A DNA stretch of 64,000 nt, taken from positions 47,926,001 through 47,990,000 of the forward strand of contig CM060733.1 of the NCBI GenBank assembly GCA_030704615.1, given 5' to 3'. The position numbers and the translations under genes were made by a program. The notes under the pieces were generated by a model. That model had not been told where the DNA came from and did not search any database. It saw nothing but the letters and a program-made list of their open reading frames with translations. Shown here in pieces: positions 1 through 30,810 of this stretch. This stretch comes from Takakia lepidozioides. Its lineage: Eukaryota > Plantae > Bryophyta. Within the stretch, counting starts at the first letter, position 1, and each line of letters opens with the position of its first letter.

Positions 1-388
1 CAACTTGTCCTCCAATGCTTTCACAGGTTTTGTCCCTACACACTTTGGAAAATGCAGTAGACTTGTTGTTGTAGATCGACATGTTACTTCCAATTAATTC
101 CCTGGGTTAATGTGTCTTGGTGAGCTAGGCCAAAGCCAACACATGACAACATAACTAGCAAGGCAGGAGTGAGCACATCAGTATGCTCACCGACAACATT
201 TGTTTCTGCTCTATTCTCTGAACTAATCCATTACGAGCTACATATGCACAAGGCTTTTAGGCTTAACAAACGCTTTGAGAAAGAAATTTTTTGGGGGCTC
301 TCTCTTTCTTAATTCATGCTATCTCTTGTCCCATAAATGATCTCCTCGGAAGTTTTGAAGTATCATATTTCATGTCCTGTTAATTCCC

Positions 389-5397: not shown

Positions 5398-5489
5398 TTT
5401 GTTTTGTTTTGTTTTGTCACGTAGAGATGTCCCAAACTGCCAGCCCCAGCCATGGTGCTTGGTACCATTGGAAAGCCCTCGTTGAAATC

Positions 5490-6724
5490 TAAGACCGAAT
5501 GCAATTTCCTATGTATCCAATGCGTCTCTTGTGTTGAGGCCCAAGTGCCACCTCTAGTGTAGCTTATGCCGTTGGCCCATGTGTGAAGAATTAAAATCTA
5601 AGCCCAAGTGCAATGTCCTGTGTATCCAAGTGCGTCTCCTATGTCTTGGCCCTAGTGCGACCTCTAGGGTAGCCTGTGCCGTTGGCCCACATTAGCTTAT
5701 GAATAAATTGTCATCTAAGCCCAAGTGCAATGTCCTGTGTATCCAAGTGCGTCTCCTATGTCTTGGCCCTAGTGCGACCTCTAGGGTAGCCTGTGCCGAT
5801 GGCCCACATTAGCTTATGAATAAATTGTCATCTAAGCCCAAGTGCAATCTCCTATATTGTATCCAAGTGCGTCTCCTATGTCGAGGCCCAAGTGCGACCT
5901 CTAGGGTAGCCTGCACCGTTGGCCCAAATGTCCAGCGTAATCTTTAAGTCCAAGTGCATCTCCTATGTGGAGGCCCAAGTGCGACTCTAGGATAAAATAG
6001 CAAAGTGAGGTTTCCTGGGAGCCTCGACGGGAGATATATCAATAATGGACAACCAGCATGTAGCCCAGTGGTAATGGGGACATACCACGTTGGATGTGGT
6101 TGTGGGTTCAAACCACGATCTGGTGTGTCATGAAAGATGTTCACCTTTCAGCTGGAAGGTAGTAGCCCTTGTGGTGAAGAGACTCCATAATTTACGCTCC
6201 CTTTGGGAGGCGTCTATATATATGTTTTTAATCAATAATGATGGATATATTACTACTCAATAAATTAATGGAAAAAAATACATCGGGCCTTGACATGGGC
6301 GACGTACTTGGATACATAAGAGATTGCACTTGGGCAAGTTAGATGACATTGGACACTTGGGCCTCTACATGGGAGATGCACTTGGATACATAAATAGAAG
6401 ATTGCACTTGGGCTTAGATGGGCCTCGACATGGGAGATGCACTTGGATAAGTAAGAAATTGCACATGGGCTTAGATTTCAATTCTTCACACATGGGCCAA
6501 CGACATAGGCTACACTAGAGTTCGCACTTGGCATAGGAGACGCACTGGGATACATAAGAAATTGCACTTGGTCTTAGATTTCAACTCTTCACACATGGGC
6601 CAAAGACATAGTCTACCCTAGAGGTTGCACTTGGGCCTTGACCTAGGAAACGCACTTGGATACATAGAAGATCTTACACTTAGATGATACTCGACACTTG
6701 GGCCAACGGCACAGGCTACCCTAG
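5490..6724. repeat. Foldback-like array: ~117-bp tandem units (5490-5990) and their reverse complements (6285-6724)
   Basis: CCCAAGTGCAA/TATCCAAGTGCGTCTCCTATG/CTCTAGGGTAGCC units on the left; CACTTGGATAC/TTGCACTTGG/CTACCCTAG on the right. Confidence 0.8.
6048..6230 (+). mobile_element. tRNA-derived SINE
   Basis: A box TAGCCCAGTGG, B box GGTTCAAACC, TA/T tail; 10-bp TSD ATCAATAATG at 6038-6047 and 6231-6240. Confidence 0.8.
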
Positions 6725-9163
6725 TGTCCATTACAACAATGGGATGCTAGGGTTAGTGCAAAGCTTTTCCTTCATTCTTTAATTCTCTTTTGGTCTTTAG
6801 ATCCATACCAAATAAGAATCCCAATATGGTAGTTGTTGTGGCTGTTGCTACAGGTTGGCTCATAAAGTGGTGAACAACAGTATGGGATTGTTTTCTCCCA
6901 AAGAGGCTCCAAAGTATGGTATTGGACAGCTTGTTTGCTATTGGCCGAGCCTAGGTATCATCTACCTTTCTTAATAGCTATAACCCCATTGGATCCGCAC
7001 GGTTAGCTGAAGTCCTTAAAATTCTGCAAGAAGGGCATAGCCTTCAACTCCAGTTCCCTGCCGAAGACCTTGGCTTCAGGTTTGTGCAGATATACACTAC
7101 TGGTAGTGGGAAGGAGGTAGAAATATGGAGAGAGAGGCATCTTCTAGGGTTGAGAAGTCACACTGTTGTCTCTTTTTCTCCTTTCATGGAACTACATTCA
7201 GTCTCAAAAGGTGTGTAGGTACTTAAAGGGAGCCAGTGTCCCTGCACAAGGGGAGTGTTCGATCCCCAAAGATAGGCATGCCCCTACAGGCAGGAGAAGA
7301 GAATATATTCCATCAACTCAACCAGTTGCACGGCTTCCACATTTCCCTATTGTTTTCCTCTCTTTGAATTCTTTGGCAGTCCACAAGGTATTTTCATGTC
7401 TATTATGCACAAGGGGGTGCCCCCAGGAAGGAATCGCCCCTTAAAAATGAGAGGGGGTGGTTCCATGGACAGGTTTCCATTCACCCCCCTAGAAATCTTT
7501 AATTGTTGTGGGCCCATGACATAATAATTGACAATTAGTTTTGGATAGAAATGTCAAAAATCATTCCCTCTCCTAAAATCTAACTTACTTTGGATGGAAA
7601 TCAATGGTATTTTGTAGGCTGCGGCCCCCTATAGGAAAAGACAAAGGTGTCAGTTAGGGACGCCGTGAAACCTTGTGAAGGGACGGTTTTTTTGCGCCCC
7701 TTAGCAAAGGGCGAATCCACTGGCTGTTGCATGAAGGGGGTCGGGACGTCTATGTGGAGGCGGTGCTGTACATGTAAGATAAGGGTTAGTGTTGGTTTCG
7801 ACTACTCATGCCTCATAAATCTTGGGGCGATTCATGCGGGGGCGCTTGCAGCTGCCCATGGAACCCGGCTCTAAGTGTCTCTCAAATCAACAACTGTAGC
7901 GTCATGTGATATTTGGAGAGGCTATCTAATATGGTTGTGTTGGACTGTCAAAGCCTTTGCTAACATGTCTTCTGCATCGACGTTTGTTGGCTCTCTTGTA
8001 GAGAAAGACTTTGCATCATGTTGAAGTCAACGGAGAAAATGTGGTCAAAGGACCTTACACCATGTCAAGACTCTGATTGGTGTGTTGTGCTGAGTCATGC
8101 CCCTTACTCTCACCTTCCTCTTATGCTATGCCAAAGCAAGAGAGCCAATCGCCGTTTTAGGCTTGTTAAATGGGAACTTGTTCAACTCTGGAGTCTGGAC
8201 CTCATTCGTGTAGACAGACTCAAGTTTTGTCTCATTGTTGGGTGCAATAAAAGCGGGTGCGCATGGGGGTGTAAAGCCCCATACTTGCATAAGCCGGGAA
8301 ATAGCCCGTTTCATCCAAAACGGTGATACACATTCCCGTAATTTTAACAAGCGTATCAAGTATTCTAACCTGTTTCAGGTGGGACAGACTGTGTGCGTTC
8401 GATTACAACATAACAAGCATGCATGCAAGTCTAAGCTCAAGATCAACGGTCCATACTTGATCTATCAGATTTTACGTGGGCGACGTGCTCTTCTTCTTCC
8501 CCAAGGCTCTAACACTGAAGTGCGGGATGAACCTGTTTCCTTGACAGACTTGGTGCATTCCGAGCTCGTTTTTTTTATCTCGCATGTATCAATGTGGAGG
8601 GCGCACGGTGGGGTGATGTCTTGCTCTTCTTCGCAATCTACTTCAGCTTATTCCACTTCTCTTCTTAGCGGCTTAGTCTTAGTTTACGGCTGATGACTCC
8701 TGGGATCCTCGGACTTGAACTCTCTAGGACTTAAAACATTTCTAAAGACATCTCACCATTTGTACTCCCTGCACGGTTTTCCTAGCCAAGGGTTTTGTCC
8801 TCGGCCCAACTTACAGGTGCCAGGTTTTCCCTTGGTAGGTTTTTCACCCAGCAGTGGAGGTTGATATTTTCCCATCGTTGTTTTCCTTCACGGAGCTCAA
8901 GATTTTTTCGTGGGGGTAGGCTTCACAGATGTAAAGCCCCATATTTGCTTAAGCCGGGAAATAGCCCGTTTCATCCAAAACGGCGATACACATTCATAGT
9001 ATATTTTTTGGCGTGTAAAGTCGTTAATCCGTTACAATGATGTTTAGGTTAGGGTTAGTTTAGGCTGGTGGCTTGATCCTGGCCCTTCATCAGATCTAGG
9101 GCTACAAGGCAGCACCGTGGGCTTTGGCCTATGATGCCTCGCCACGTGGTGGGCCACTATGGT

Positions 9164-10223
9164 TCACATGGTCCTTCCAAATCATGCCATCCCGACCCTC
9201 CAAGATCAGGACTCCTGAGGGCAACACCTCTCGAACCCTCAAAATAGTACGTCATGCAGTCACATCCAAGGTCGTAGGAGCAGTCTGCTGCAGATAAACA
9301 TAGTCATCAGGGTTAAATCTCCAAATCCCAGGACGATAGCCCCCACCACGTATGGTAGCATACCTCAATGTATCACGATGTTGTGCAATGGCAAGGTTCT
9401 CGAAAGCCATGGGCATGACTTTCTTGAACAACTCTGCACGTTGATCACATGCATGTGCCCACATGTCCGGATCGTCAAGGTTGAGAACTGTAGCAGCTTC
9501 TCTACGAATGGATGCAGGCAAATCCGGCTCTCGGCCAAAGAGAAGAAAGTATGGTGAGAAGGAGGCAAGTGATGCTTGCTTGCTGAACCTGTAGCCCATG
9601 GCTAACCAAGGTACCTGAAGGTCCCAATCTCCTAGGTGTCCCTTCTGCAAACCATACTTGCGCAAACCCCTCTTCATTGTTTGAACAACCCTCTCTGCCA
9701 AGCCATCGGCCTCAGGATGATCCCGAGAAGTGGTGCGGTGGTCTACCAAGGCCTTGTCACACAACGCCTGAAACTCCCCCTAGAACTCTCTCCCTTGGTC
9801 CGTGAGTACCTCAGTTGGAGCACCGAATCGGCTAAGTACACAATCCAAGAATGCATACGCAGCTCCCTCACTAGCCTTATCAGGCAATGGAACCAACTCG
9901 ATCCACTTGGAAAAGTGCTCCACCATCACCAACACGTACTTGTTGTGGCGCATGGTCAATGGCAACGGCCCTGCGAAGTCAAGACTTCACCTGTAGCCCA
10001 ATCCCATGATCGGAAGAGGGTGCAATTGTGGTGTAGGGGCGTTGAATGAAGCACGCACCCTCTCACACACCATGTACCTAGCCACAAATTGTTGCACCTT
10101 ACCACGCCACCAATACTGCCCCTGAAGTAGACTATGAGTGCGTCGCACCCCAAAATGCCCCAACTCCTCATGGGCATGCCGCACTAACCGTGCCCGCTGT
10201 ATTGGGTGAGGCACAATCCTCAC
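9164..10223 (-). pseudogene. Element A DDE integrase
   Basis: HEELGHFG (HHCC remnant), VLTDQGREF, HPEADGLAER, SPYFLLFGR; tail ...LEGRDGMIWKDHV. Confidence 0.92.
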
Positions 10224-10979
10224 TCAACCATCCTCCCACACTCGGAGCAGGTGTGTCCCCTCCCACTTGAACCTCTTGGCTCGTTGTAGGATCTGATCCC
10301 TCTCCTTAGCAGTCACAGTGGCTGCCGTGTCTCCAGTGCGGAGATAGTCCAACACAGTTGAATCCTCATGTATATCTTTGGCGCCACCTTGCTCATTGCT
10401 GGCCTCAGGGTCCTCAGACACTCGGTCTACAGTCACCCCTATTGTAGGTCCAACCTGGCTTTCCGCTGCCAAGATACATAGAAATGTAGATGCATGCCAT
10501 CCAGGCACCATCTCCTCGTCCGTCTCACCATGCCACCGAGCTCCAGTGTCATCCTGCTGGCTCGTGCATGGATTGCGACTCAACCCATCCGCATCCCGAT
10601 TGACCAAACCCGGTCGATGCACAACCTGAAAGTCATACTTTTGAAGTATGAGTGCCCACCGTGCAAGCTTCCCCGTAAGCTTGTCTGACTCTATCAACCA
10701 CTTGAGTGGCTGGTGATCCGTGACAAGGGTGAAGAGATTGCCGTATAGATAGCACCTGAAGTGTGCCACGGCCCACACTGCAGCTAAGCACTCTCCCTCA
10801 TATGAGCTATACTTAGCCTCTGCAGCGTTGTTCGAGCGGCTAGCATAAGCCACTAGGAACTCTCTTCCCTCATCATCCACCTGTGTGAGCACCGCTCCAA
10901 GCCCCAGCATGCTCCAATCTGTATGCAGCTGAAAATGACGCCCCCTGATAGGTCGTCTCAAGATGGGCGCCGAGGTCAA
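10224..10979 (-). pseudogene. Element A RNase H
   Basis: LHTDWS, YSSYEGECLA, LVTDHQPL, DADGLSR. Confidence 0.92.
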
Positions 10980-11009
10980 CCTCGCCTTGAGCTCTTGAAA
11001 AGCTTGTTC

Positions 11010-11940
11010 TTACTCATCTTCCCACTGCCACTCCTGGTCCACCTTGGTTAGCTTGGTTAGAGCCTTTGCAATGGCACTAAATCCCTTGACAAACCGTCTA
11101 TAATAGTTTGCCAACCCCATGAAAGCTCGGACTCGGCTCACATCCGTGGGGCGTGGAATCTGTGCAATGGCCTCTACCTTAGTCTGCTGTATCCCCAATC
11201 CTCCAGGATATATCATGTGACCCAGATACTCAATTTGGTTGTGGAAAAACTTGCACTTCCCCGGATGTAACTTCAATCCGTGCGCCCTCAAGCGCTCAAA
11301 TACCACCTGAAGGTGTCTCTCATGCTCCTCCACCGTAGCACTAAAGATGATGATGTCATCTATGTAGCATCGAGCAAACTCCACCCCTGCTAGAATCCTG
11401 TCCATGACTCTCTGAAACTCTGCAGGAGCGTTCTTAAGCCCAATTGGTAAGAACCGCCACTGGTATAGGCAATCCTTCCCGTGCTCATTGATCCCCCCAA
11501 AATGTCGTCTTCTGCTTATCCGCCTCCTTGATCGGCAATTGGTGATATCTGGATCGTAAATCCAAAGTGCTAAAGACCTTGGCATGCCCAATGGCATCAA
11601 AGATCTCCTTTGGTGTCGGCATGGCATACCTCTTGGACTTGGTCTGACGATTTACAGGCCGGTAATCACCGCACATACGTCTCTCCGTCCAATTGCCATA
11701 GACATCCTTCTTGGCTGGCATCACTGTGGCTGAAGCATACTCTCCACCAGATAGCTCCACCAAACCAGCTTCCCAAAGGTCCTGAGTCCTCATCTGAATC
11801 AAGGACCTCTCCATGTCACTGTATCTATAGGGTCTCCGAAAGATTGACGTGTCAGTGGCCAATTCAATGCGAATCTCTTGACCTTTCAGTGCTCCCAAGT
11901 CCTTCAAACTGAAGGCAAAGCAGTTCCTGTAAGCCCTCAA
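11010..11940 (-). pseudogene. Element A reverse transcriptase
   Basis: RMCGDYRPVN, LDLRSRYHQ, LPIGLKNAPAEFQR, YIDD, YLGH; frameshift near 11490. Confidence 0.95.
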
Positions 11941-12379
11941 GAATCGCCGTATACGTCGTCTCTCTCCTCCGATGACTATGGGTCCAACATCAGGCTCCTA
12001 GTTGTCCTCCGTGAGTGCAACCTTGAGTCCAGCAGGCTTAGAGGTAGAAGACGCGTCCCGTGGTTGCTATGTTGTAACCTCTTGAGCTGTGACCACTTCC
12101 TGCTCTGTCAGTGACAATGTCTCATCATGCCCCACCATCTCATCCTTGAGGACCTCCTCAACTCGAGAAAAATCCCCAACCTCATCCATCACCGCCGCCT
12201 TGGCTGCCAACTCCCTCTGAACCTCGAGCACCTCCCACGTGTGCCATGGATGCGGCCTGCACCTCGTGGTCCTCACCTGTTCGCCCCCACTCGCTGCTTG
12301 TACCGTCTCGGTAGGCAGAGAGACTATCAAGGGAAGTGTACTCCGTACTCTGCGCTGCTCAGCCATAGCCAAGCTGATA

Positions 12380-13330
12380 ATCCAGGTCAAGCAATTGAGA
12401 TCCATTGTTTGCCCCAACACCTGACGACGTGATGCCTCAGAAAGAGATGGCACCACCGTGGTACCAGTGGTAAAACCCAATGCCCGCTCGCGCTCGTCAG
12501 CATTGGGTTCCACTAACTGCTGCAACTGGCTATCCCACAAGAGGCCAGATCCACCATCCTGGAAAGCATGAGATCCTGGAAAGCTGAGTAATGTAGGCAA
12601 TGCTGCTCGTGGGTGACCCACCTTATTGGCCACTGCCAAAGGTGAACGGTCATCGTGTCTCACACGCTGAGACTGCCTCCCTATGTCCAAAATGCTATCC
12701 ACCGTCAGGTTTGGTGGCCGCTGCATCCCATCAAATGCACGCTTGAGTAGTGTAGGTGACATCAAGTTGGTCCACCATAGTCGTGGGCGATGAGCTTGTA
12801 ACCCCACTGCAGCTGCATCCAGCAACACTGCTGACCCAAGCCAAGACCACACTTGATGTACACTGGCCATCACCTTGGCCCGAGAATCACCCATCAATGG
12901 CACATTCTCCAAGATATATGTCAGAGAGTCTGTCTGCTGGATCTGTAAATAGCGCAGGACCATCAACATCTCCCAAAACAGGCGTGACCTTGAGTCTTGT
13001 AACCCATTGCCATGCCCGGCTAATGAATGTCCTTGGCAGGGCCAACCTGCCACTACCAAGTGAATAGGGCCAAGCCGCTCCAAATCCTGCGCCCCCAAAA
13101 AGAGATGTCTACTGGCAAGGCTTGCTGGTATCCACGAACTGCAGACACTGACAACAAATCAGGGTACTGCTGCACCAACTGAGCAACATGGCGCAGTGAG
13201 ACGCGTCATGCAGTCTCATCCCTCTCCACATACAGGTAACGTCGAACTCGTACACCTGCCTGCAGCACTGCAACCAATCCAGTGCTGATCCCGCCAAACA
13301 AGTCCAGAAGGCATATGCCTTCATCCGGGC
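12380..13330 (-). pseudogene. DNMT3-like C5-cytosine methyltransferase domain within element A pol
   Basis: Motif I LLDLFGGISTG, II YVE, III DI, IV LVVAGWPCQ, VI ILENV, VIII AHRPRLWWTNL, IX ERERALGF, X RRQVLGQ, in linear order; one TGA (13206) and one frameshift (about 13100). Confidence 0.93.
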
Positions 13331-13649
13331 ACTGCCACACAAGAGGTGTGGTGTCCAATGGCGACAACTGAGGTGGTCCTGATGCAATCACCGCACTCTC
13401 ATCCTCTCTTGACGGTACAAAGGCCTCTACCCAGGCTTGTTGCACACGTCTATCAGCAGTCTGCTGCAAATCCTTACTCGTACCCCACAATGGAGTGTGA
13501 GCAACCATGGCAGGCAACTCCGCCGTACCATGCATGTCATCTTGCTCTGCTGGAGGTGGCACATCCTCTGCATGGGCATTGCCCTCCAACAACTCTCCAG
13601 GCCAACTAACTGCAGCTGTGAAGGCTGCTAGTATTGGCATCTTGCCCCG

Positions 13650-14168
13650 CTAGGCAGCAGCAACACCCCCAATGAATGTCACAGGGAGCTGTACACGACG
13701 ACCATCCCTTGATTGCCATCCAGGCCTGTAGGATGTTGACTCCTCCCAAAAATCCAGGGTGAAGCCCATGGGATACAATATTGCCCCACCAACAAGGACA
13801 TTGTAAGAGACTGCGTCTGTCACAATGGACTTGGCTCGCATCACTGAGCCATCTATAGGATGATCCGGCTGTAGTCTAATGGCCAACTCACGCCGTGTCA
13901 TGCCCCGAGTCTGCTCTGATCCTCCCAGAGATGTCTGTATCTGGAAGGGACAAGGCTCCATATCCGCCTCCATGAGGCCCAAACCTGCAATAGCGGCTCT
14001 GCCCAACATCAGTGGCTGAGCTCCCAAGTCCAACAAGACCCGCAATGGCCGGTACCTCTTGCCTGCCGGTCCACTCAAAGAGAAAATACCATCCTGGTTG
14101 TCTAACAAGACAACTCCAGGTGTCACCATGGCACGCTCAAAGGCTGGCCTAGTTGGCAGCTTCGTCAA
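13650..14168 (-). pseudogene. Element A aspartic protease
   Basis: VLLDLGAQPL (DSG-type motif variant) and YNVLVG; ends in an in-frame TAG that reads on into the DNMT segment. Confidence 0.8.
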
Positions 14169-14599
14169 CCTGGCAGCTGCAGCTTGCTATGGCGCAGCCG
14201 TGGCAGTCTTGACCCTCAAATCCGATGATCCCTCTGCCACTACACCTTCCACTAACTCCGCAGAAGATGAAGTGACCTCCCCACTCTCACAGAGTGTTGT
14301 TGCTAGTCTGAACACTGCAGCTGGTCTTACCCCCGGCGTCGCAATCATGGTTGCCTAGAACAGTGGGGCCTGACACACAGAGGTGGCCGCCCCCAACAAC
14401 ACACTAGCTGCACTAGCTTTGGCAGCAGGTGTCAGTGCTGCACGTGTAGCTCTTCCCAATGGCACAATAACCTCCGTCTCGGTATCCGTGGGGCGAGAAT
14501 TAGGTGCCATGGATGTCATCGACACTGTCTCTGCCAAGATGAATGATTGAGGCAACCTAGCCTGACGGCTTGCCTCCCCACGCTGCGGATCCAACTCCA

Positions 14600-16200
14600 C
14601 CTCTGCACCTCGTGGCTCAGAAACTCGTGCTGCTCCTCGAGTGACGGCTGTAGCAGACTCCACCTGCACTAATGGTAGTGCTGCCCCACATAAATCCCAT
14701 GCCTCCCATGTCTCCTCCGTCAGAGTGACGTTGCTGAGGAGGAACATGAGGTGGACCCTCAGGTCTTGGAGCTGGTACCACCTGAGCTGTGGCCATGGCA
14801 GCAAGCCTTTGCTCTAGCTGCTGAGGCCGGTTGGCCATGCCTTGGTCAACGCCCTGACCTCCACGTCCTTGGCCATACTGTGCTTGCCCTCGTCCTGCAC
14901 CTTGTCCTCTCTGAGGTGCTCCACCTTGCCCTCGGCCACCATTGTTCCCTTGGAACTGGCCTCGCCGCAATTCAGGGTGCAAGTCATAACACTGGGCATC
15001 TCCATGCCCATACTTGTCACAATGCCCACAATACAATTGTGCAGGTTGTGCTTGTGCCGGCCCTTTGCCACTTTCTGGGCAATCTTTCTTGACATGGGGT
15101 CCTCCACATGTCCAACATACCACCCCTGGTGGCTGTTGGCTTGCAAAAGAAGCTACTGGCCTCTACACCTTAGGCCCCCTATAAGCTCCATGCAATTTGG
15201 GTTGGGCAACCTTGCCCCCCCTGACCACGCTGTTGGGCAGTCCCTTGTATCAGTTGGCTGGCAGCTGCGCCTCGTGCAGACATGTCCTTGCCAAATCCAA
15301 TGGTAACAACTCGCTCCTCCACCATGTTGAGCTCAATCCGCTCAGCCAGCAGAAACACATCTGCTAATGTGGGTTGGCTGCTTATAACAGGGTTGCATCC
15401 CGCACCCTTCTCCTGAACTCCTTGTCCAAAATTCCATACCAGAATTGGATTGCCTGAGCTTCAGTAACCCCTTGGGTCATATTTATCAAGCGCCTCATAC
15501 GAGTGTAGGCCTCTCGCAAGCTCTCACTGGATTTGCGCTGGAAGTCTTGCAAACTTCACAGCTTCTCTGTCCGTACGCCTTGGTAGTTCCTCCGCAACTC
15601 CTGGAAGAACTCCACCACCGGGTTGAATCTAGGCACATGTGTTGTAGTCGTGGCAGGAGGAGTAGTAGCACCTTTTGAACTGGTACCACCTGCAGAAGTA
15701 CCGGCACTACTTGTTCCATTACTAGTGCTAGCAGTGGAAGATATTGGTGCTGATGCAGCTACTGATCGCGTTGTGCCTCGAGTAATGGAGACGTAGTCAG
15801 GTGACCAATACAGCCTCCACTCCTCAATCTCTGCTTCATGTCCTCGCCTGAACTCGTGGTAATCGTCCATAGGCGGGCCTTCCAAATGTTGGAACAGTCC
15901 CTTCCACGCCATGAATGGGGTGAACAGCTGTGGATTGCGCATCTACTGCAAATCACACCAGCTGTCAAACTCCTGGATAAAGTCATCCACCTCGATTGTG
16001 CCCACAGCTCCAGAGTACCTACGAGGCCCCTTGGTAGCTCCATACATCTCCTCCACTTCGTCCCACAACAATGGCGAAGGAAATTGCACACCTGTTGATG
16101 AAGCCTCCGAGTCTGTGTCAGACTCTGCACTAGTTTAGGGTGGAGGTGAAGGTGGTCTAAACCAAACACCTCGTCTTGTGAACCCACTCTCACTGCTACT
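14600..16200 (-). pseudogene. gag: Element A gag with two zinc knuckles
   Basis: RFNPVVEFFQELRRNYQG retrotransposon-gag-like segment; CWTCGGPHVKKDC and CGHCDKYGHGDAQC (CX2CX4HX4C-type). Confidence 0.85.
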
Positions 16201-19074
16201 GCCTGTAGCCGTACTCTCCTCAAAACCCTTGGGTAACTCCGTGATGACACTCACAACCCGCACCTCCCCCACGTGACACTATAAGGCTCTAGTATTAATT
16301 CTAATAGTGACACGGGTGAGCACCTGTTGCGGATTAAGGGTCATATCCCAGTGGCTAAGGGCACCTGCACCTGCATCCACCGCAAGAACTCCTATGGTTG
16401 GCTGGTTATCAACCCAGCCTCACCATAGAAGAAACACTGGTGGTCTTGCTGGTCATCACTCCAACCTCACCACCGACAGCATACTCTAGGATTGACCGGT
16501 GATCAAATCCGGCCTAATCCCTATGAAAACAAGCGCCCACACAAAACCAACATGGCGCACAGTCAAGCATGCAGGTGTGGGGGGGATCCAAACACAAGAA
16601 ACCAAAACATCAACACCCCCACACCAAAATCCCTCCGCAGTGCTGCTCCTACAGAATACCCCAGCCCAAAAACCCCGAACTGACTGGCCTCCACCAAGAG
16701 AGGCTTTGGCAACTACAAGTACAAAGTAATGAAAATAGTAAAGAGAGGGAGGGGAAGAATAGAGGTCCGACCAAGCAAGATCTAATTCTGATCTATGCTA
16801 TCAACTGCCAGACTTCTCTCAAAGTTCCTCGCTCTGCATGATGGTAAGGTGTGGGAGGTATATCTATATCCTGAAACCTGCCACTAACCTTATCCCAAGC
16901 TACAGTAGCTCGCTCTAACCAACCCTCCTCCTCTCTCTGCCAGGTAGAGACAAAACAATACTGCCCTATCTCCCGCTCACTGAATACTAAAGAGAATAAA
17001 GGTAGGGTCTGATAGTCTCTCAACTCGAAAGCTTTGAGACGGTTGCGGGTGTCCTCGTTGCGAATGACTGCATCTCCTTCAAGCAGAACAAACTGTTCGT
17101 TGTTAATGAACCCCCGTTCGTGGTTGCCTGGTGCAGAGCGTGTCCGGCTGCAACCACGTCTGATTGCAAAAACTTGTGCATTCACCTACAGCTGCAGAAG
17201 CTGCTTGCTCCAACAGAGTTCTGACTGTCCAAAGCAATATTGAGGCCCTCAACGCCAACTACAGCAGTTTGCTGTCTATTGCTAATGCCTGACTCCCAGT
17301 ATGCAATCAACTCGTCCAACTGTTCTCCACTCAAATCAGTCTGAGTTCCTTGAGAAACATAAATCTTGTCTCCTTGTGTGTACACAATCTGTAGGTATCC
17401 CCCCAAAAACTGCGTCAAACGAAGCTCATATGACAAAGATATGGCCAAACAGGCTCTGTAAATATAATATATGACAATACAAGGAAAAACTATTTTCAAT
17501 TGGTTTCGTTTGGTTCCTTGTTCCCACGTTTTATTTTATTTTGTTTTTGCGATTCCCTGTAGGTTCCCATCAAGTTCAAAATACAGTGCCCTGCGAGTGA
17601 CCGCAAAATCCCCCAACCGTTCAGAGCCTGATACCCCTTCAGCCAGCGATTCAAGAGCAATTGGCCCTCATTTGAATTAACTAATCAACTTCACAGCCAT
17701 CCACCATTTTTCAACTTCAATTCCAGCTTCACCTTGACGTGCTGGCCAGCCATATCGTTGAACGTTGGTATTCGAATGGCAGACAAAACTATCCCTGATC
17801 AGTTCCAATTCAAATAGCCCACCATGGAAAACACAGAGATTAATGAGATCGCCACAACCTGGTCATGGCGGAAGAGCTTGTCAATCTTCTTCACACCTTC
17901 CTCGAGTCAAGGCCATCCAAACTCCACTATTTGCACGTCTCCAACAGTCTCAAGATCCGTCATGTTCATCTTGCCACAAGACTGATCACTTAGTCATTCC
18001 ATCATTGAAGTGCGCATTGCCCATTTTTGTGTGCCATTTGTCTCTTCACATTTAACCAAACAACTCTGTGGAGTATATAGCCCAGTGTCCTCGAACTCGA
18101 CAGCAACTACCTCGTCTCGTCGTTCAAGGAATCCGTCAAACAAATCACCAGTCCTCTTCGTGATCTTCTTGTCAAGCAAACTGAACTGGTCCATATAGCA
18201 TCATTCGATTTCAAAACCATCATATGTTGTTCCCTAGCACTGGTGAGGCCGCTGCTGCAGGCCTGTCACGACGTTCCAATCGACAGCCATGCTAGAAACA
18301 ATTGCACCACTACAGCCTGCTGTGCTGTGCCTGGCGAGGGCCGCGCCATTAATAGCCTCCTTATGTGTGGCCTACTAGAGTACTGTGAAAGCTTCATACA
18401 ACAAAATTCGGTCTTAAATGTTCATGGCTGCACAGGGTCTAAGAGTCCGACCAAGCATCTTGTAGCTCGTGTATTCCTCTACTCTGGCTACCCTGCAAGC
18501 TCCACGATTGTATTATGTGGCTGCTTCAACGCCGCCCAGCCCCTCTTTGTGCCTGCACTGTCTCACCAGGTTGCAGCAACTGCTAGCCCCTGTTGGAAGA
18601 CTTCATCGCCCAATATGCTACTGGGAGGCTAACTACGGGCTGATCACCAGACTCTTTTTCTTGTGCACATAAACATGCTAGGCTTCAGATTCTGACAACA
18701 TTTATGACACAAGCGACACTCCACCAGCTTTTTCACAGCCCACTTTGAACAAGCCACTTTGCTCTTTCACCAACTTGCAAGCAACAACCTGCCGAGCTGT
18801 TTGTCCGCACAACTGCTACTCCGGCTTTGTATATCCTGCGTAGAGCCTACGAGGCTGTCCAAGCCTCCATCCTCTTATTTGGCATCCTGTGTTGTGCCTC
18901 CCATGCACGCCATCGTACCATACCGCAAACAAAACCAGCATCAATGACTTCTACCTTAACCACTCATTAGGAGTTGTGCTTTCCCTACTTCAAATACCAT
19001 CGACATAGTGCTAACATAAAAGAACTCTATCTAGCTTAGCACTACAAAAATCTAGACAGAGCATCTCTCTCGAG

Positions 19075-19427
19075 TGAAATAAAAACTAAACTCACACTGG
19101 CTGTTGACACAAAATACGGAATACAATATAATCACTCGTTAAAATAAGAGTCAAGCCAGGGGCACCCCAAGCTATGGGGATTCCACCCCACAACAGCCTA
19201 CTCTCCCTCCATAAGTACACTCAGATGCTAAGCATCGAGGGAGCTCGGTCGTGCAGGCTCAACTCGAGAGAGTGAGCCGCACGACTGACGAGCTCGTGAA
19301 GATAAGATGGTGCAGGCGTCAAGCTAAACTTGACACCTGACTTAACACTTGAACTAATTCCAAGTGTTAAATACAAATAACTAGATTTATTCTAGTTAGT
19401 TTCACACTGTGTTTATTTAACTTGACA
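19075..19427 (-). repeat. Element A 5' terminal repeat Y (~353 bp)
   Basis: Reverse complement of 21271-21623, with about a dozen differences by eye. Confidence 0.92.
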
Positions 19428-20596
19428 GGGTCAATCAATACCTGATTGTACCCTGAAAAGCCATCCATAAAGGAGTAGAGCTCGTTTCGTGCTACTTCTT
19501 CCACCAAAGTATCTATGAATGGCAAAGGAAAATGATCCTTGTGTGTTACCTTGTTAAGGGGGCGGAAGTCCACGCATACCCTTAGGCCTCCATTCTTCTT
19601 TTGGACGATCACCATCAGGGACACCCATGTTGATGTTTCCACCGGGAAAATAAATTCTGCGGCCAGCAACTTTTCGATCTCTGCTTTAATGAGTAGTGCC
19701 AAGTTGGGGTTCACCCTCCTCTCGCGTTGTCGTCTTGGGGTGGCTCCCGGAAGTATGGGAATGGAATGCATTGCCACGTAAGAAGGCACTCCCTTCAATT
19801 TGGTGTAGGACCATGCAAAGATGTCCCGAAATTCCTTGAACAGTGCCTGATACTCCAAGGACTACTCTGTTGTCAAGTGGGCTCCCACCTTCACCATCTT
19901 TGGTGACTCTCCTCCAACTGCCATGTCGATCAACTGCGTCGTTGGTTCCGATGTGAAACACGACCTCGGCTCAAATCGAGATCCGTTTGATCTCTGCTGC
20001 AAATAAAGAACATAGGGGGTGCTATGTTTCAGGACATCCCTTTCTAGGTCGACCTCCTCTACAATTCTCATATCTAGAATCTCACTATTTTCCTCCTAAG
20101 GAATCTCTTGTTCCTGCAGACCAACCCGTTCGGCAGATATGGAAAAAAGTTCGGTCAATGACTCGAACTCTGGAAGTGCCTCGGTTGATATCGAGTGTAC
20201 CATCATTTCCCTGCCTTGGTTTTCTTCGAACAACCAAGCCATGCAGTCTGCATCAGACTCGCATTCATACAATCCCGGTCTTAGAGACCTGACTGCATCT
20301 TCTAGTCCTACCTTTCTTCGCTTAACCTCCCTGTGAGGCGCTGTAGCCGTTGCTAAAACTCGGTGGGCGTGCGAGGTGGGGAGGAGCTCTCCCTCTGACC
20401 ACAAATCCTCCTCACTCAAGTCTGCAGACTCCTCTTCAGAGCCAATCATGCTAAGCTCATCCTCATCTGTTTCTTCGTGAGGTGCTCCGGAAAGAAATGC
20501 AACAGTAGTAGTGTAAGGTCTTACCCCATAAGTAATGGTGCCTACCCCCCAATCCGTTCGTGCCCTGGACTGGACCAACCATGGCCTCCCTAACAC
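19428..20596 (-). mobile_element. Gypsy element B (non-chromovirus, Athila/Tat-like RT), 5' piece: protease end to RT N-terminal half
   Basis: LGRPWL, DIFAWSY, LRVCVDFRPLN, FPLPFID, YSFMDGFSGYNQVLIDP; cut exactly at element A's terminus. Confidence 0.88.
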
Positions 20597-20708
20597 ACGA
20601 ATCAGACACTAAGCAGCTCTCATCCAAAACTTGTACACCCAAATCACATACACACCAACACCCGAGTACACCGTCCTGACCTTGTGTCAGGGCGCCGTCT
20701 TTATACAA

Positions 20709-20926
20709 GTGCGCCATGTCACCTTCCAAATGTTGATGGAAGGGTTGACCCAAACCTGACAGTGGTACCTGCAAGTTTGAGGTGCATGTTGTGTGGGTCT
20801 GCTAGAGGGGCAGCCACCATGCTGGTGTGTGATCAATGCTCTAGAAGTTGGCATATGGGATGCTTGACTCCACCTCTTGAGATGGTTCCTGGTGGGGATT
20901 GGTTATGTCCGCATTGCATTGGATAG
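20709..20926 (+). CDS. PHD finger, C-terminal end of element A pol
   Basis: (C)APCHLPNVDG...CMLC...CDQC...WHMGC...WLCPHC (C4HC3), followed by PPT and element A terminal repeats. Confidence 0.85.
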
Positions 20927-21172
20927 TGGGAGTGGATACAATCATGGAAGGCTAACAAGAAATGCAAGGCCAAGCTACTAGGAGACCAACACACGAGATC
21001 CTGACTCAAGTTCACAGATTGCAAGACGGCGACTAACGATGGGGCTGCTCTTGTACCCGGCCTCTTGGTCTATAGAGTTTGAGTACAATAGGGACAGTGA
21101 TAGAGGACTTAGTACGGCTGTGGCTATTACATCTTGTAGCTATATGGAGTTAGAGGGACCTAACCACTAGCT

Positions 21173-21709
21173 AGGGGGGCGATTGTGGCAGACTACTTTA
21201 TTGTGCATATATGTGTGGTGTGGTTTGGACAGCGATGTAGTTGTGTAGCGATACGTATGCGCACGACAGCTGCCAAGTTAAATAAACACAGTGTGAAACT
21301 AACTAGAATAAATCTAGTTATTTGTATTTAACACTTGGAATTAGTTCAAGTGTTAAGTCAGGTGTCAAGTTTAGCTTGACACCTGAACCATCTTATCTTC
21401 ACGAGCTCGTCAGTCGTGCGGCTCATCTCTCTCGAGTTGAGCCTGCACGACCGAGCTCCCTCGTTGCTTAGCATCTGAGTGTACTTATGGAGGGAGAGTA
21501 GGATGTTGTGGGGTGGAGTCCCCATAGCTTGGGGTGCCCCTGGCTTGACTCTTATTTTAGCGAGTGATTATATTGATTTCGTGTTTTGTGTCAACAACCA
21601 GTGTGAGTTTAGTTTTCATTTCATTGTGGCAGATTACTTTATTGTGCATATATGTGTGGTGTGGTTTGGACAACGATGTAGTTGTGTAGCGATACGTATG
21701 CGCACGACA
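21173..21709 (+). repeat. Element A 3' end: PPT, then X1 (21184-21268), GC, Y2 (21271-21623), T, X2 (21625-21709)
   Basis: AGGGGGG purine run, then the 85-bp X repeated twice (2 mismatches seen) around Y; ends GCACGACA followed by TSD ACCC. Confidence 0.9.
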
Positions 21710-22885
21710 ACCCAAAGGACAGGTTGAAAACCACCTTTACTCACCATGGGGCACCTTTGCCTATACACGGATGCCCTTTGGCCTGTGCAACGCACCCTTG
21801 ACGTTTCAGAGGGTCATGCCTTCTCAGACATCGTGAGAAGAAATTTGGTCATCTTCTTAGATGACTTTTGTTGCAATGGGGATGCAAAAGATTACGTTGC
21901 AGCATTACGAGAGTGCTTCATCCGGTGCAACGAGAATGAGATCTCTCTCAACCCAATGAAGTGCATGTTTGCAGTCACACATGGATTGCTACTAGGGCAC
22001 ATAGTGTCCAAAGATGGCGTGGCGACAGATCCAGCAAAGGTGAGCGTCATAGTCGAATTGCCTGCATCAGAGACATCATCTAAGGTGAAAGGGTTCCTTG
22101 GCCACACAGGGTGGTATATGAAATTTATGGACAAGTATGCAGCAAAAGCCTTATCTCTGACTCGATTATTGAAAAAGAACCAGATAATTTCCTGGGATAC
22201 AGGGTGTCAAGAGTCTTTCGAGACACTCAAGCAGCGCTTGGTGTTCGCTCCCGTTTTGGCCGCTCCCGACTGGAACATGCCTTTCCATGTTTACGTTGAT
22301 GCTTCAGCGGTGGCCGTAGGCTGTGCCTTGTGCCAACCAGATGCTGATGGCCATGGTCATCCAATATCTTTCACCAGTCCACAACTGACATTCACCGAAA
22401 CGAGGTATAGCACCACGGAGCGGGAGGCTCTGGGAATGATTTTTGCCGTAAAAAAATATCGGCATTACCTGTTGGAGACACCTTTCATTTTTTTGTTGAT
22501 CACATGGCATTACGATACCTGATCAATAAACCCGATTTGACGGGAAGAATAGCCAGGTGGGTTATTCTTCTTCAGGAATTCGACTACAAGGTAGTCTACA
22601 AGCCCGGAAAGCTTAATGCTCAGGCCGATCACCTTTCCCGATTGTCGGAGGAAACAGGGGCTGAGCCTATTGACGATGACTTCCCGGATGCATTTTTGTT
22701 CTCCATAGAGACCGTTCCTCCATGGTATGAACACATAGCTCAGTATTTAAGCACCCTGGAATTTCCCCCAAGATTGGATCGACATGCGCAACGAAGGCTT
22801 TGACTGCGCATCATGAAGTTTGCTTTTGTGGGAGGGCAACTTTATAGAAGGGGATTGGATGGACTCTTGAGGCGATGCGTTTGAT
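21710..22885 (+). mobile_element. Gypsy element B 3' piece: RT C-terminal half, RNase H, start of the IN linker (truncated)
   Basis: Resumes PKDRLKTTF..MPFGLCNAP, FLDD, YVDAS, TEREAL, ADHLSR. Confidence 0.9.
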
Positions 22886-23927
22886 CCTCCTCTCGCACGT
22901 TGCTTGCTCTTTCCGCTCGCCCCTTTGTTGTGCAACCTCGCTTCTTGAGAGGAAAGGAGTATATGCTTCAGGCTTGTTTTAAGGCTTCACAGGGGGATAC
23001 CGTGTTGGCAGTGGCAGGAGCCTTTGGAGTTTCTGTCAGAGTCGCAATTATCTGGCCTTCTTTGTGCAAGCATGGGGTTGCAAAAATGAAAGTTGTGTAG
23101 TACAGGTGGAAGAAGTAGGAGAAGGTTGGTGGGATACATGTAACCTCCCAACGTTTGGTGCAATTTTGGTTAGGCCTGATGACCATATTGCATGGAGTAC
23201 TAAAGCTGAATGCCAGGTCTCTTCTTTGCGGGAAGAGATCGACCATTGACTTCCGACAAAACAGTTTTGTTTAAGTCCATCTATAGTTTCTACTAATGGA
23301 ATATGTAAAGAAGTTCTTCCTAGTGACATGGTATGCAAATCATATCTACAGAAACCTCAGATAACAATCGGATGATCGCTCAAGGCTGCTCCTCGGAATA
23401 GTGGATTCTACTTTCATCCATAATAAACTTGAAAAATCATCCATTTATTTTCTATAGGTTGTTCAATATATAGAGATGTCACTTAATTGGCAGGGGCCTT
23501 CGAAGGGCTCAGAATTTTCATCCAATCTGCATAATGTTCCTGATTTGAAGTCATTGAAGTCATTTGAATGTGATTTGAATTCTGGCCCCACAGAGCATCT
23601 CAAGTCAACCATTTGACAATTTAGCAGCGGGTGGTTTTTCAGATGTTTGAATCTTGCGTACCTGGCGGGCCATGGATTCTCAAGTGGGCAGCAGGATGGT
23701 GCTTTTGCATCACAAGTAGACCCAACCCAGGCGGTGAGCAATCGACAGTTATCGGACCTTCCGGACCACGAACTCTTCCCTGAATTACATTTATGACAAG
23801 GTATGAAAGACGTTTCAGAGGTGCCGGCCATTGGTCTAGGGAGAGGAAGACGTCGATGGAATGCGAGACGAGCTGCTCCTTCCAGGCTCGCTCGCTCTTA
23901 GCAGAGTGTTAGCAGTGTGCTGGCGAA

Positions 23928-25944
23928 ATGTGGGCTGAGCTTGCTTGTGTGCAGAAACAGATTGCAATGAATCATCCGAGGTTTTACGAGGTTTTAGGCA
24001 TAGTTTTAGTACTAGGCGTCATGGCGGGTGTGTTGTGTGGGGCAACACCACCATCGCCTGCTGCTGCAAGCTTGCAGAAGCACAGGAACATAAAAATGGC
24101 TGATGATCGTGTAGGCAAGAGTGGCCGGATTGCGGACGTGGAGGTGTTGTTGGCATTCAAGATTGGCATACTTAAGGATCCAAAAGGAATGCTAACGAAT
24201 TGGAGCGCAGCGGCCGGAAGAGACATTTGTCACTCATGGAACGGGGTCACCTGTGATGCAGCACATGCACACGTGGTACAACTGAATCTTGGAGGCATGG
24301 AGCTCCAAGGCACCATCACTCCATTGCTTGGCAATCTCTCCTTCTTGCAAACTCTCAACTTGTCCTCCAATGCTTTCACAGGTTTTGTCCCTACACACTT
24401 TGGAAAATGCAGTAGACTTGTTGTTGTAGATCGACATGTTACTTCCAATTAATTCCCTGGGTTAATGTGTCTTGGTGAGCTAGGCCAAAGCCAACACATG
24501 ACAACATAACTAGCAAGGCAGGAGTGAGCACATCAGTATGCTCACCGACAACATTTGTTTCTGCTCTATTCTCTGAACTAATCCATTACGAGCTACATAT
24601 GCACAAGGCTTTTAGGCTTAACAAACGCTTTGAGAAAGAAATTTTTTGGGGGCTCTCTCTTTCTTAATTCATGCTATCTCTTGTCCCATAAATGATCTCC
24701 TCGGAAGTTTTGAAGTATCATATTTCATGTCCTGTTAATTCCCGTGAAGCTGAGAACCTTACAAAGCCTGACAGTTTTGTACTTGCTATACAACAATCTC
24801 GCAGGTGTGATTCCTACTAGTTTGGGAGATTGCTCATCTTTGGTGGAGCTGGACTTGAGCAACAATCAGCTGGGTGGGCACATACCAAGGGAGTTAAGGG
24901 GGGTTGCAAAAACTAGCGATCCTTTACCTTTTCAGCAACACACTCACAGGCACCATTCCTTCTACTTTGGGAAATTGCTTATCTTTGGTGCAGCTAGACT
25001 TGGACTCCAATCAACTCACTGGAGACATACCGATTGAGCTAGGGAGGTTGGAAACCTAACGCAACTTTTCCTTTGGAACAACAGCGTCACAGGCACCATT
25101 CCTGCTAGTTTGGGAAATTGTTCATCTTTAGTGGATTTGGTGTTGACCAACAACCAGCTGAGTGGGAATATACCCGTGGAGCTAGGGATATTGCAGAATC
25201 TAACTTTCCTTTATCTTTTCAGCAACAATCTCACAGGCACCATTCCTGCAAGTTTGGGAAACTGCTACATCTTTGGTGGCCTTGGAGTTGTCCGACAATC
25301 AGCTTAGTGGGAACATACCCATGGAGCTAGGGGGGTTGCGAAACCTAACTTTTCTGTATCTTTGGAACAACATGCTTACAGTCACTATTCCATCTAGTTT
25401 GGGAAATTGCTCATCTTTGGTGTACCTTGACTTGTACTCAAATCAGCTGAGCGGGAGCATACCGATGGAGCTAGGGCGGTTGCAAAACCTAGCATACCTT
25501 CTCCTGTGGAACAACAGCCTCACAGGTACCATTCCTGCTAGTTTGGGAGATTGCTCATTTCGGCGATGTTGGACTTGGACTCCAATGAGTTAAGTGGGAA
25601 CATACCGGTGGAGCTAGGGCAGTTGCGAAGAATGGACTCCCAGGCACAATTCCTACTAGTGTGGGGGATTGCTCATCTTTGGTGGAACTAGAATTGTACT
25701 CCAATCGATTGACCTATAGATCTAGGGCGGTTGCAAAATCTAGAATATCTTTTCCTGTGGAACGACAGTCTGACTGGCATCATTCCTACTGGTTTGGGAG
25801 GTTGCTCATCGTTGATAGAGTTGGACTTGAGCCTAAATCAGCTGAGTGGAAATGTACTGATGGAGCTAGGGATGTTGCAAAACCTAACTGCCCTTTACCT
25901 TGGGAACAACAGCCTCACAGGCACCATTCCTACTAGTCTGGGAT
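23928..25944 (+). pseudogene. LRR-RLP paralog, frameshifted and 3'-truncated
   Basis: Hydrophobic signal region and LRRNT (LLAFK..DP...NW...C.SWNGVTC); near-identical to window 1-1770 from 24356; several frameshifts, a 169-bp deletion at GAAG microhomology, no TM. Confidence 0.9.
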
Positions 25945-26324
25945 TTCAAACTCGTGCAAGAAACATTTACATAGCTTGGAATCCGCCCAGAGAAGTTGTT
26001 AGATGAAGGAAATCCCAAGTTTACAGGTGATTGTATGGACGAGATTTGCAAATGTAGATGACATTGTACATGAAACAACGATGAACCCACTTTCTTGTGA
26101 GCACTGGAATACAGAAAAGTACAATCCACATCTGTGCGGAACATGGGAGAGAGAGAAAGAAGAGAAACCATGATGATGGTGCCAACTATGGCTAGCAAGC
26201 ATAAATATGAAGCTCCTTCTCCCTAGCAAGGCTCCTGCCCTCTTTGAGAGTTGGTGCTATGAGGTTTTGGGTTGGTTAGGACATGAGATGAAAATACAAA
26301 GCTTTTTGTTTCCTTACGAAACAC

Positions 26325-29300: not shown

Positions 29301-30810
29301 CAGTGGGACTGGTAGGCTGTAGTGATGTCAGCACCTGTGGTGTCTTTCCATCTGTGGTACTCATCACAGAGTTACTTGTCTGCTCTACTTCTAGATCTCT
29401 CGAACAGTCATTTGCTTCCTCTTCCAATTCGGCAAGTGTGATCTGCACATCAGAGCTCTCAGTTGTTGCATCCTTTTGCAATCCCTCTTCAGAGCCATGG
29501 CTATCCTTCTTTTCAATATCCTTACTTGAATCTTGACTGCTGACCTCTAAAGGATGCTCTGCTCCTAAGCTTTCAGCTACTTCTTCCATTTGCATATCTT
29601 CTCCTACTCCTGCCAAAATGCTGCTGGAATCCTTGTTCTGTTCAACTTTACTGGGAGCTGAGCTGCTGGCCTCTGATAGTTTTCCACCTTCAGATACACC
29701 GGCTACAGTTTCCCTGCTCACATCACTTTCCCCTGCTTCAGAGGTCTCTTCTGCATCTTTTTCAGCGGTTTGGCTGCTGACATCTTTAGATTCCTCTCCT
29801 TTTGGTTTCTCACTCATGCTTTGAGAGATGTCACCATTTGAGTGAAGCGCTTCTGGAGTGGACGCCCCAACCCCTGAGACGAAAGTCTCTTTCCCGGCGT
29901 TACTCTCATGATCACTTGGCCTCCTCTCCCAATCCATTTCTGGCATTGAAAGAAATACAATATCATCTGGGTTTTCAACAAGAACACCCACCATTCCATC
30001 TGGAAATCGCTTCAAGTAAGGATCTCTCACAGCCACCCTTGCACCCTCTGGGTAGCAATGCTGTGCTTGTGTCATACTAGCCCGCATAGGTACTGCATTA
30101 GTCAGCGTTATTTTAGCTGCCAAGCCCGAGTCTTCCTCCAGCACATTTACCTGGAGAACAAAGTAATTAGTTTTTGAAGTAAATACAAGAAGCTTGGACA
30201 CCAGTGTGCATGAGGGAGATGGTAAAGAATTCCCTATTGAACTGCCAACATTGTTCACACTGATTATTATTTATTACTCACGAATTCTCAATGCTGCTGT
30301 GCCTTGCTGAAAGAAAAGACTGGTTTGTCGTTCAGGTTATTTCTTGGTCAGTCCATGACTTCTACACCCCGGGTGTGTGTGTGTGTGGGTGTGTGTGTGT
30401 GAAAGAGAGAGGGAGAGAGGAGAAGAAATACCAACCACAGAGTGTATCTTGAGAGATTTCACGCAGAACCGACCCTCAAGCACGTGCCTGCGATGGGTTT
30501 TTCCCACCTTCATCTCCTTGAACGATATGGGCTTGAGACCCTTCCACGGGACCCCCGGAAGAACTGGAGGGATGGACGGCGCCTCGCTATCCGCTAATGA
30601 AGTTCCAGGGAGCAACCCCATCTCTAGCATGTGTGCATCATGCAGGGCTGCCAGGTGAGCTGCAACCAGTCCTGTCTTCTCAAAATACTCCGAGGCATGA
30701 ATTGTCTCAGCCGGCCCTGGACCCACCAATTTGCTGCCAGGGGACGTGCTTCCTATTTCGTGTGTCCCCTTTTTCACCGGACTGGCAGTTAGCTCCATGT
30801 GGGCTGGCAT
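26325..30810 (-). CDS. Multi-exon TPR + SET domain protein (SMYD-like lysine methyltransferase)
   Basis: TPRs (GNNKFSQGDFQGAVELYSRG, YSNRAEA); SET N GRGLILTKDVEAGDLL; SFINHSCLPN; GEEITRNY; post-SET WGFVCDCTRC; GT-AG introns visible. Confidence 0.85.

Follow-up and report, generated by a model that had tools for sequence, protein, structure and literature searches.

The window analysed here comprises 64,000 nucleotides of the moss Takakia lepidozioides (assembly GCA_030704615.1, contig CM060733.1, positions 47,926,001 to 47,990,000 of the forward strand). It contains a dead Gypsy retroelement encoding gag, a protease (PR), a C5 cytosine DNA methyltransferase (DNMT), a reverse transcriptase (RT), an RNase H (RH), an integrase (IN) and a PHD finger. 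We observed directly this domain order, the DNMT3-like sequence of the methyltransferase, the near-invariance of its catalytic residues, a conserved stop codon and its context between DNMT and RT, split repeats with a palindromic junction, and 4-bp target duplications. The explanation we favour, with somewhat better than even confidence, is that an old Gypsy lineage makes abundant Gag-protease-methyltransferase and scarce RT-RNase H-integrase-PHD, and that the methyltransferase is packed into the particle, where it is predicted to methylate the cDNA. The order gag-PR-DNMT-RT-RH-IN-PHD had been proposed in the original prediction, and all of its domains are present, with the PHD finger on the plus strand owing to an inversion of positions 9165-20708. 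The host is a land plant, as expected, since its RTF1 groups with Sphagnum (100/100) and apart from liverworts, lycophytes, ferns and seed plants in a tree of 25 rows with no hornwort or alga. The supposition that such elements had not been characterised in embryophytes agrees with our literature search, which found no earlier case.

The stop codon between methyltransferase and reverse transcriptase

In the window, a TAG at 12067-12069 followed by the codons CAA-CCA lies between DNMT and RT. Exactly one stop separates these domains in three related loci (L043, L072 and L081), each of which then continues for 1047 open codons; in L072 the gag-PR-DNMT frame upstream of the stop measures 1369 codons. 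Sixty-one sequences contained both domains, 46 of them in frame, and the equivalent stop was found in 33 of the 46. In the largest subfamily it occupied the same position in all 26 copies (17 TAG and 9 TAA), and other linkers showed no stop position common to more than 8 copies. DNMT and RT of the window's clade are in the same frame, but divided by this stop and not joined in one uninterrupted open reading frame (ORF). Among the rows listed for positions 12055-12071 in sequencing runs of the host, no variant reached 25% or more, and the neighbouring stop was private to the window copy. Eight gag-PR-DNMT proteins, seven of them named as Marchantia, Calypogeia or Sphagnum, end 76-83 residues past the DNMT, and in the ESM Atlas the downstream ORF forms a 102-member cluster of its own, of about 1035 residues.

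The six bases after the stop read CAR-YYA in 6 of the 33 copies and CAR-YYC in 26, one copy being degenerate. The CAR-YYA copies spell the motif with different codons (CAA-TCA, CAG-TTA and, as in the window, CAA-CCA), and the background of CAR-YYA or CAR-YYC is 4-5 per 1046 in-frame codon pairs. After UAG, CAR YYA is the readthrough signal of tobacco mosaic virus (TMV), with 6-10% readthrough in Arabidopsis (PMC2754532; this and the other papers cited were available in part). Retroelements need about 20 Gag per Pol, a ratio that some achieve by an in-frame stop (PMC2194720). Support for an RNA stem downstream of the stop is weak, with z of -4.4, -2.3 and -2.5 in three relatives, -1.4, -0.8 and -0.6 in the window, L048 and L015, and no more than 6 consensus pairs. 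Because the stop is conserved with a TMV-type context, DNMT would be made at the level of Gag, and RT-IN-PHD only by readthrough. Judging from these sequences, the stop is very probably leaky, readthrough at a few percent setting the Gag:Pol ratio and leaving the DNMT on the abundant side. In one run that may be RNA a contig crosses the DNMT-RT linker, which we do not count as expression.

A different stop had been noted in the original prediction, which placed DNMT in frame after PR with one TAG. That TAG exists and is a product of decay, as no stop position between PR and DNMT is common to more than 8 of 52 in-frame copies. The frame itself does not hold in this copy, where a further stop follows motif II and the frame shifts near 13100, so that motifs I-II and IV-X lie in different frames.

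The methyltransferase and its relatives

By sequence and predicted fold the enzyme is DNMT3-like. Its domain is intronless, belongs to the polyprotein frame and has the key residues, with motifs on the minus strand at 13310-13284 (I), 13238-13215 (II), 13047 (IV, GWPCQ), 12915 (VI, ENV), 12795 (VIII, AHRPRLWWTNL), 12495 (IX, ERERALGF) and 12429 (X, RRQVLGQ). PCQ, ENV and RxR are all in place, as had been claimed, and the linear, DNMT3-like arrangement was borne out; it differs from the permuted order of DRM (VI-X then I-V), which matches the family profile only in part. The HMMER search against PF00145 that had been recommended gave a match with E 2.6e-9, and the best match of the window ORF was DNMT3A (E 9e-8). 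Against PDB, a profile of 34 family sequences ranked DNMT3A (2e-22) first, above DRM (1.5e-9) and HhaI (1.5e-6), and the model of P0058, a close relative with the whole domain (pLDDT 87.7), had only DNMT3 structures among the Foldseek matches listed. Searching the ESM Atlas with the DNMT returned generic phage C5 methyltransferase clusters only. An origin of the domain from a host gene rests on the PDB ranks and a published tree, our own trees having been built without cellular DNMT3.

Relatives matching at E 1e-30 or better formed 578 clusters under 50% identity. Among the best 150 of them the catalytic Cys was kept in 146/147, the motif VI Glu in 150/150 and each motif VIII Arg (Arg-x-Arg) in 148/149; motif IV reads EC instead of PC in 86/147, frequently in the sister lineage described below. 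The substitution pattern indicates that the DNMT is under purifying selection. In the dN/dS comparison that had also been suggested, values between the window and related loci (Nei-Gojobori) were 0.114 for DNMT (50 pairs) and 0.114 for RT (27), 0.079 for IN (19) and 0.19 for PR (23), with dS near saturation. In close decayed copies dN/dS of all domains drifts to 0.4-0.9, and 7 of 75 locus DNMTs are without a stop. The CpG observed/expected ratio of the element (0.43-0.50) is not below that of host genes (0.32-0.55) and is uninformative on self-methylation.

The DNMT is a family-wide trait, widespread in green plants, and neither a one-off capture nor a neutrally evolving domain with degenerate residues, the two outcomes that would have spoken against the original prediction; all searches were anchored on the DNMT, and relatives without it are invisible to them. 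Named relatives among 53 + 120 listed proteins came from Marchantia polymorpha, M. paleacea, Riccia sorocarpa, Calypogeia fissa, three Sphagnum species and Monoraphidium, and 20 proteins looked up, 5 with an organism name, added Klebsormidium nitens, Closterium and Scenedesmus. No named vascular plant, hornwort or Physcomitrium occurred among the 53 + 120 proteins, a weak negative as most matches are nameless. Of the best 150 relatives 109 could be placed, 14 with the DNMT beside the protease (PR-side) and 95 with it between RNase H and integrase (RH-side), the other 41 being DNMT-only fragments. The DNMT and RT-RH trees split alike by this position (SH-aLRT 99 and 98; 58 and 50 rows), the DNMT tree being a quick, unrooted one and 30 random proteins of 63 standing for the RH-side. 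Named streptophytes fall on the PR-side, named chlorophytes on the RH-side. The window falls into a 9-row clade with Marchantia and Calypogeia (SH-aLRT 99), and K. nitens and Closterium form a PR-side subclade separate from that of bryophytes. Vertical descent of the family is plausible on these trees.

A sister lineage ordered RT-RH-DNMT-IN-PHD (P0027, P0040, P0379, L082 and L083; Scenedesmus, Monoraphidium) also has the junction palindrome. A deeper PR-side lineage (L056, L059, L062 and L076) has split repeats and no conserved DNMT/RT stop. L038 and L079 are internal deletion derivatives that kept DNMT and PHD, L079 being without RT and L038 without RT, RNase H and integrase. Among viral contigs, 23 pattern matches included no relative. 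In prokaryote genomes, 3 of 82 pattern matches were genuine, all of them whole retroelements and likely binning contamination. L081, L082 and L083 are whole eukaryotic retroelements of this family within bacterial genome bins, and P0104 is a family protein annotated as a bacterial DNA methyltransferase; such elements inflate DNMT counts in bryophyte annotations and probably contaminate bacterial genome bins.

Split repeats, inversion and surroundings

The element is laid out as A1-body-purine tract-B1-A2-B2, with outer ends TG and CA. Besides the window element, 5 of 80 metagenome loci, those holding both ends, have the arrangement A-body-B-A-B, and six more loci show the 3' B...B part. Exact 4-bp duplications (ACCC, AAGG, GGTC and CCAA among those seen) flank 4 of the 6 complete elements. 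At the B1/A2 junction two element ends stand back to back around a 2-bp spacer (GACA-GC-TGTC); the exact 12-bp palindrome was found at 7 of the 83 loci, including an RH-side (chlorophyte-type) locus, and of 29 PHD-bearing loci 15 show the junction with at most one mismatch, misses not having been checked individually. A canonical tRNA primer site is missing, as TGG follows A1 in none of the 6 complete elements. The purine tract lies ahead of B and not of the TG end, which would place the start of plus-strand synthesis beyond the integrated left end by the length of one B. Palindromic circle junctions are cut by the integrase of foamy virus (PMC1180852), and the palindromic junction, the 4-bp duplications, the purine tract upstream of B and the missing primer site together suggest a DDE integrase opening a circular intermediate. 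L081, a circular-looking contig, was rejected as evidence of a circle, since repeats collapse in this way in assembly.

The Gypsy order PR-RT-RH-IN with a DDE integrase is present in the window element and its relatives. An rve and H2C2 integrase was found, and a tyrosine recombinase had no match in two ORFs of L072, ORF2 of L081 and five leader ORFs. A chromodomain likewise had no match, and a PHD finger is present instead (PF00628, E 3.8e-12 in the window). This finger is closest to those of CHD4, PHF12, KDM5 (PHD1), PHF21A and ATXR5, which mostly read unmodified H3K4.

The minus-strand integrase halts at 9165 and picks up at 20709 on the plus strand, followed by the PHD finger. In 4 of 4 sequencing runs, 9165 is linked to 20709/20711 of the opposite strand in contigs from other copies; the segment 9165-20708 is thus inverted in this copy, after insertion, and the PHD finger, the end of IN and the 3' repeats therefore sit on the plus strand (20709-21709). 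The inversion could be either a biological rearrangement or an assembly error. In a second organism a single 5009-bp contig spans DNMT, PHD and purine tract. The copy is indeed dead, as had been stated: tblastn against two relatives shows a total of 21 stops across five segments, some of which overlap, along with several frameshifts, including one within the DNMT. It was inserted into the RT of an unrelated Gypsy whose RT reading continues across the site. Read depth indicates a family very abundant in the host, with contigs about as dense over the DNMT as over PR and gag (depth, not copy number). The leader part at about 17850-18940 has several hundred times lower coverage than the coding region and possibly represents an insertion that only this copy or its subfamily has. 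On the minus strand we located MYGATKGPRRY of gag at 16047 and its zinc knuckles at 15117-15004, the protease motif at 14036-14016, YIDD of RT at 11366, RNase H at 10925-10704 and the integrase at 9986-9165.

Table 1. Features of the retroelement and its insertion site, in window positions.
Feature	Position	Strand	Remark
5' terminal repeat A1, 354 bp, begins TG	19075..19428	-	341/355 aligned columns identical to 21271-21623 (A2)
Target-site duplication ACCC, 4 bp, 5' copy	19429..19432	-	
Long leader	16400..19074	-	no tRNA primer site after A1; five of its ORFs without Pfam match
gag, two zinc knuckles, broken by stops and frameshifts	14700..16200 (approximate ends)	-	
Aspartic protease	13690..14150 (approximate ends)	-	homologues match PF13650/PF13975
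DNMT3-like C5 cytosine methyltransferase, motifs I-X linear	12367..13322	-	one stop after motif II, frameshift near 13100
Conserved in-frame stop between DNMT and RT, readthrough-type context TAG CAA CCA	12061..12069	-	
Reverse transcriptase, frameshift near 11480	11200..11900 (approximate ends)	-	
RNase H	10570..10930 (approximate ends)	-	PF17917 E 6e-35
DDE integrase, cut by inversion at 9165	9165..10220	-	
Integrase tail and C-terminal PHD finger (20783-20917)	20709..20923	+	
Polypurine tract, upstream of B1	21173..21182	+	
Repeat B1, ends CA	21183..21268	+	83/85 identical to B2
B1/A2 junction, near-palindromic GACA-GC-TGCC (family form GACA-GC-TGTC)	21265..21274	+	
Repeat A2	21271..21623	+	
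Right-terminal repeat B2 of the element, ends CA	21624..21709	+	
Target-site duplication ACCC, 4 bp, 3' copy	21710..21713	+	
Inverted segment	9165..20708	.	includes the bulk of the element together with the 5' part of the Gypsy around it
Unrelated Gypsy with RT interrupted by the element	19433..22900	.	19433-20708 minus, 21714 onward plus

The retroelement block is flanked by tandem LRR receptor-like genes at 359-3235 (open) and 23913-26050 (broken), within which window positions 1-300 and 24356-24655 are 100% identical over at least 300 bases. Positions 5480-6730 hold a foldback-like array of units of about 100-120 bp, in tandem and then inverted, possibly a MITE or foldback element. A second, AT-richer Gypsy at 40600-48300 has duplicated gag segments, 10-bp tandem repeats and, unlike its neighbours, a CpG observed/expected ratio of 1.0. 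Host genes include a TPR and SET-like gene at 26300-30800 (from ORF reading alone) and RTF1 at 55300-59250.

Alternative explanations and known systems

In the explanation we favour, the element RNA would yield much Gag-PR-DNMT by termination at the conserved stop and, by occasional readthrough, a little RT-RNase H-integrase-PHD; many DNMT molecules would be packed into the particle and methylate the new cDNA. Packaging and methylation of the element's own cDNA, also suggested in the original prediction, is a hypothesis already put forward by de Mendoza et al. (PMC5890265). We consider it probable that the DNMT is active on DNA, and there is about an even chance that it acts chiefly on the cDNA of the element, which would arrive pre-methylated like host repeat DNA. 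We hold with equal reserve, neither more for than against, that the plus strand is primed at the purine tract upstream of B, that the repeats allow the cDNA to close into a circle, and that the integrase cuts the palindrome in a staggered fashion behind each CA, leaving standard processed ends with 2-nt overhangs for strand transfer. From the kinship of its PHD finger, we lean slightly towards the finger on the integrase binding an unmethylated histone H3 tail and so steering insertion. Only tentatively would we extend this to a lineage as old as green plants that combines a DDE integrase with DIRS-like circular replication through a palindrome, has no tRNA primer and aims its insertion by a PHD finger, and in which, within the clade reaching mosses and liverworts, a leaky stop turned a captured DNMT3 into an abundant particle protein, every copy being delivered methylated.

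Several points weigh against what we propose. The stop is missing in 13 of the 46 in-frame copies (one deep lineage) and in P0025, P0401 and P0489, and bulk DNMT is therefore not required family-wide; moreover, the CAR-YYC context of 26 of the 33 stops is the weaker one. In the comparisons of the window with its relatives dS is about 2, and in the deepest bin dN/dS is 0.22 for DNMT and 0.10 for RT, the DNMT being less constrained. With regard to integration, the junction is seen in just 15 of the 29 PHD-bearing loci, two of these probably not being the true site; L059 is without a target duplication and L076 has one with a mismatch; and a circle has two equivalent junctions, yet A-body-B-A-B is the only product seen. 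In yeast, no methylation was obtained with the KnitGypsy DNMT on its own, in an assay that its authors call inconclusive (PMC5890265).

An abundant DNMT might instead work in trans within the nucleus, where it would put a self-limiting brake on the element by methylating its integrated copies or their promoters, or would change host chromatin. Such a self-limiting function was raised by de Mendoza et al. (PMC5890265), and the conserved stop makes the enzyme part of the abundant product, in amounts beyond what a single cDNA might require; however, its fusion to Gag and protease favours packaging, the host already has its own DNMT3, CMT and MET1 pathways (PMC10952607) and the Klebsormidium methylome is ordinary and plant-like, all of which makes this role unlikely. 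Still less likely, in our view, is that the DNMT serves the circular intermediate, binding or methylating the palindromic junction and controlling which junction the integrase cuts and when. The symmetric CAG/CTG and flanking CG sites of the junction, its presence in both architecture types and the DNMTs of DIRS elements with the same repeat layout would fit this role, but the decay seen there (GACAACTGTC, GACAGTTGTC) is of the kind expected from host methylation once the element has inserted. We give a little less credence again to a domain working without DNA methylation, as a nucleic-acid-binding or structural particle protein or in RNA methylation: the negative yeast assay of the Klebsormidium enzyme, expression at Gag level and the EC form of motif IV agree with it, whereas the near-invariant Cys, Glu and both Arg across such divergent clusters, and a fold and sequence of DNMT3 and not DNMT2, argue for catalysis on DNA. 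Finally, the copy is broken and inverted and window positions 1-300 are exactly duplicated at 24356, as might be expected if the arrangement were an accident of one-off gene capture, nested insertions or misassembly. The same order recurs in dozens of independent loci, in named genomes and in the 5009-bp contig of a second organism, and the number of matching clusters points the same way; this recurrence refutes an accidental domain order, leaving such an origin next to no probability, and an assembly error could at most account for the inversion.

Why a transposon keeps an enzyme that normally silences it has been a question since 2018, and the known cases are in algae without genetics. Marchantia has copies with all catalytic residues (e.g. 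P0002, Mp_4g09160), and methylation mutants exist there; from where the stop stands, a sharp prediction of stoichiometry follows. The end structure points to an integration route that we did not find described for Gypsy elements in the literature searched. In that search, most subscription papers being outside its scope, no publication came up that deals with members in land plants, with the readthrough stop or with the palindromic junction, and the accessible parts of 10.1101/363937, 10.1101/2021.11.30.470311, PMC6317226, PMC10952607, PMC11244446 and PMC7466625 report no land-plant elements of this kind. Sarre et al. 2025 mention retrotransposon DNMT3s in 'streptophytes and dinoflagellates', citing de Mendoza et al., and their supplementary trees may include bryophyte copies (PMC12344493).

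Among known systems, a stop separating an abundant from a scarce product is shared with MuLV, Tca2, SIRE1 and TMV, the last with the CAR-YYA signal (PMC2194720, PMC2754532), although in the moss element it stands after protease and DNMT and not after gag or before env. Chromoviruses also place a chromatin reader at the integrase C-terminus (PMC6317226, a survey whose accessible text mentions neither a PHD finger nor a methyltransferase), but theirs is a chromodomain, where the moss element has a PHD finger together with split repeats and a DNMT. Phygy elements of REXdb prefer NCGN targets, which the duplications of this family do not fit. DIRS, PAT and Ngaro elements use a tyrosine recombinase, replaced here by a DDE integrase with 4-bp duplications. 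SymbioDIRS-Dnmt3 of Symbiodinium, which methylates CG de novo in yeast, likewise carries a DNMT3 within A-coding-B-A-B repeats (PMC5890265), and differs in its tyrosine recombinase, the moss element having a DDE integrase, a protease and target duplications. Cellular plant DNMT3 and DRM share the DNMT3 family catalytic domain, but the moss enzyme is without introns or a companion domain, lies inside a retroelement and is not permuted like DRM.

The closest likeness is to KnitGypsy-Dnmt3 of Klebsormidium nitens, whose Gypsy polyprotein contains a DNMT3-like domain that is intronless, unpermuted and under purifying selection, which has DIRS-like split repeats (A-coding-B-A-B), and for which cDNA methylation was proposed (PMC5890265). 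The K. nitens PR-DNMT protein GAQ93235.1 (P0460), which may be one of the published copies, falls on the PR-side branch of the window (SH-aLRT 99). The hosts differ, moss and alga, as do the subclades. The paper describes one ORF, and its main text does not mention a PHD finger, palindromic junction, target duplication or primer site, though its figures may show the PHD or more. Because a conserved stop separates DNMT and RT, the moss element is a variant lineage of the KnitGypsy-Dnmt3 kind and not a strict member of it; new with respect to the published kind are this readthrough-type stop and the palindromic junction of the internal repeats, in a land-plant host.

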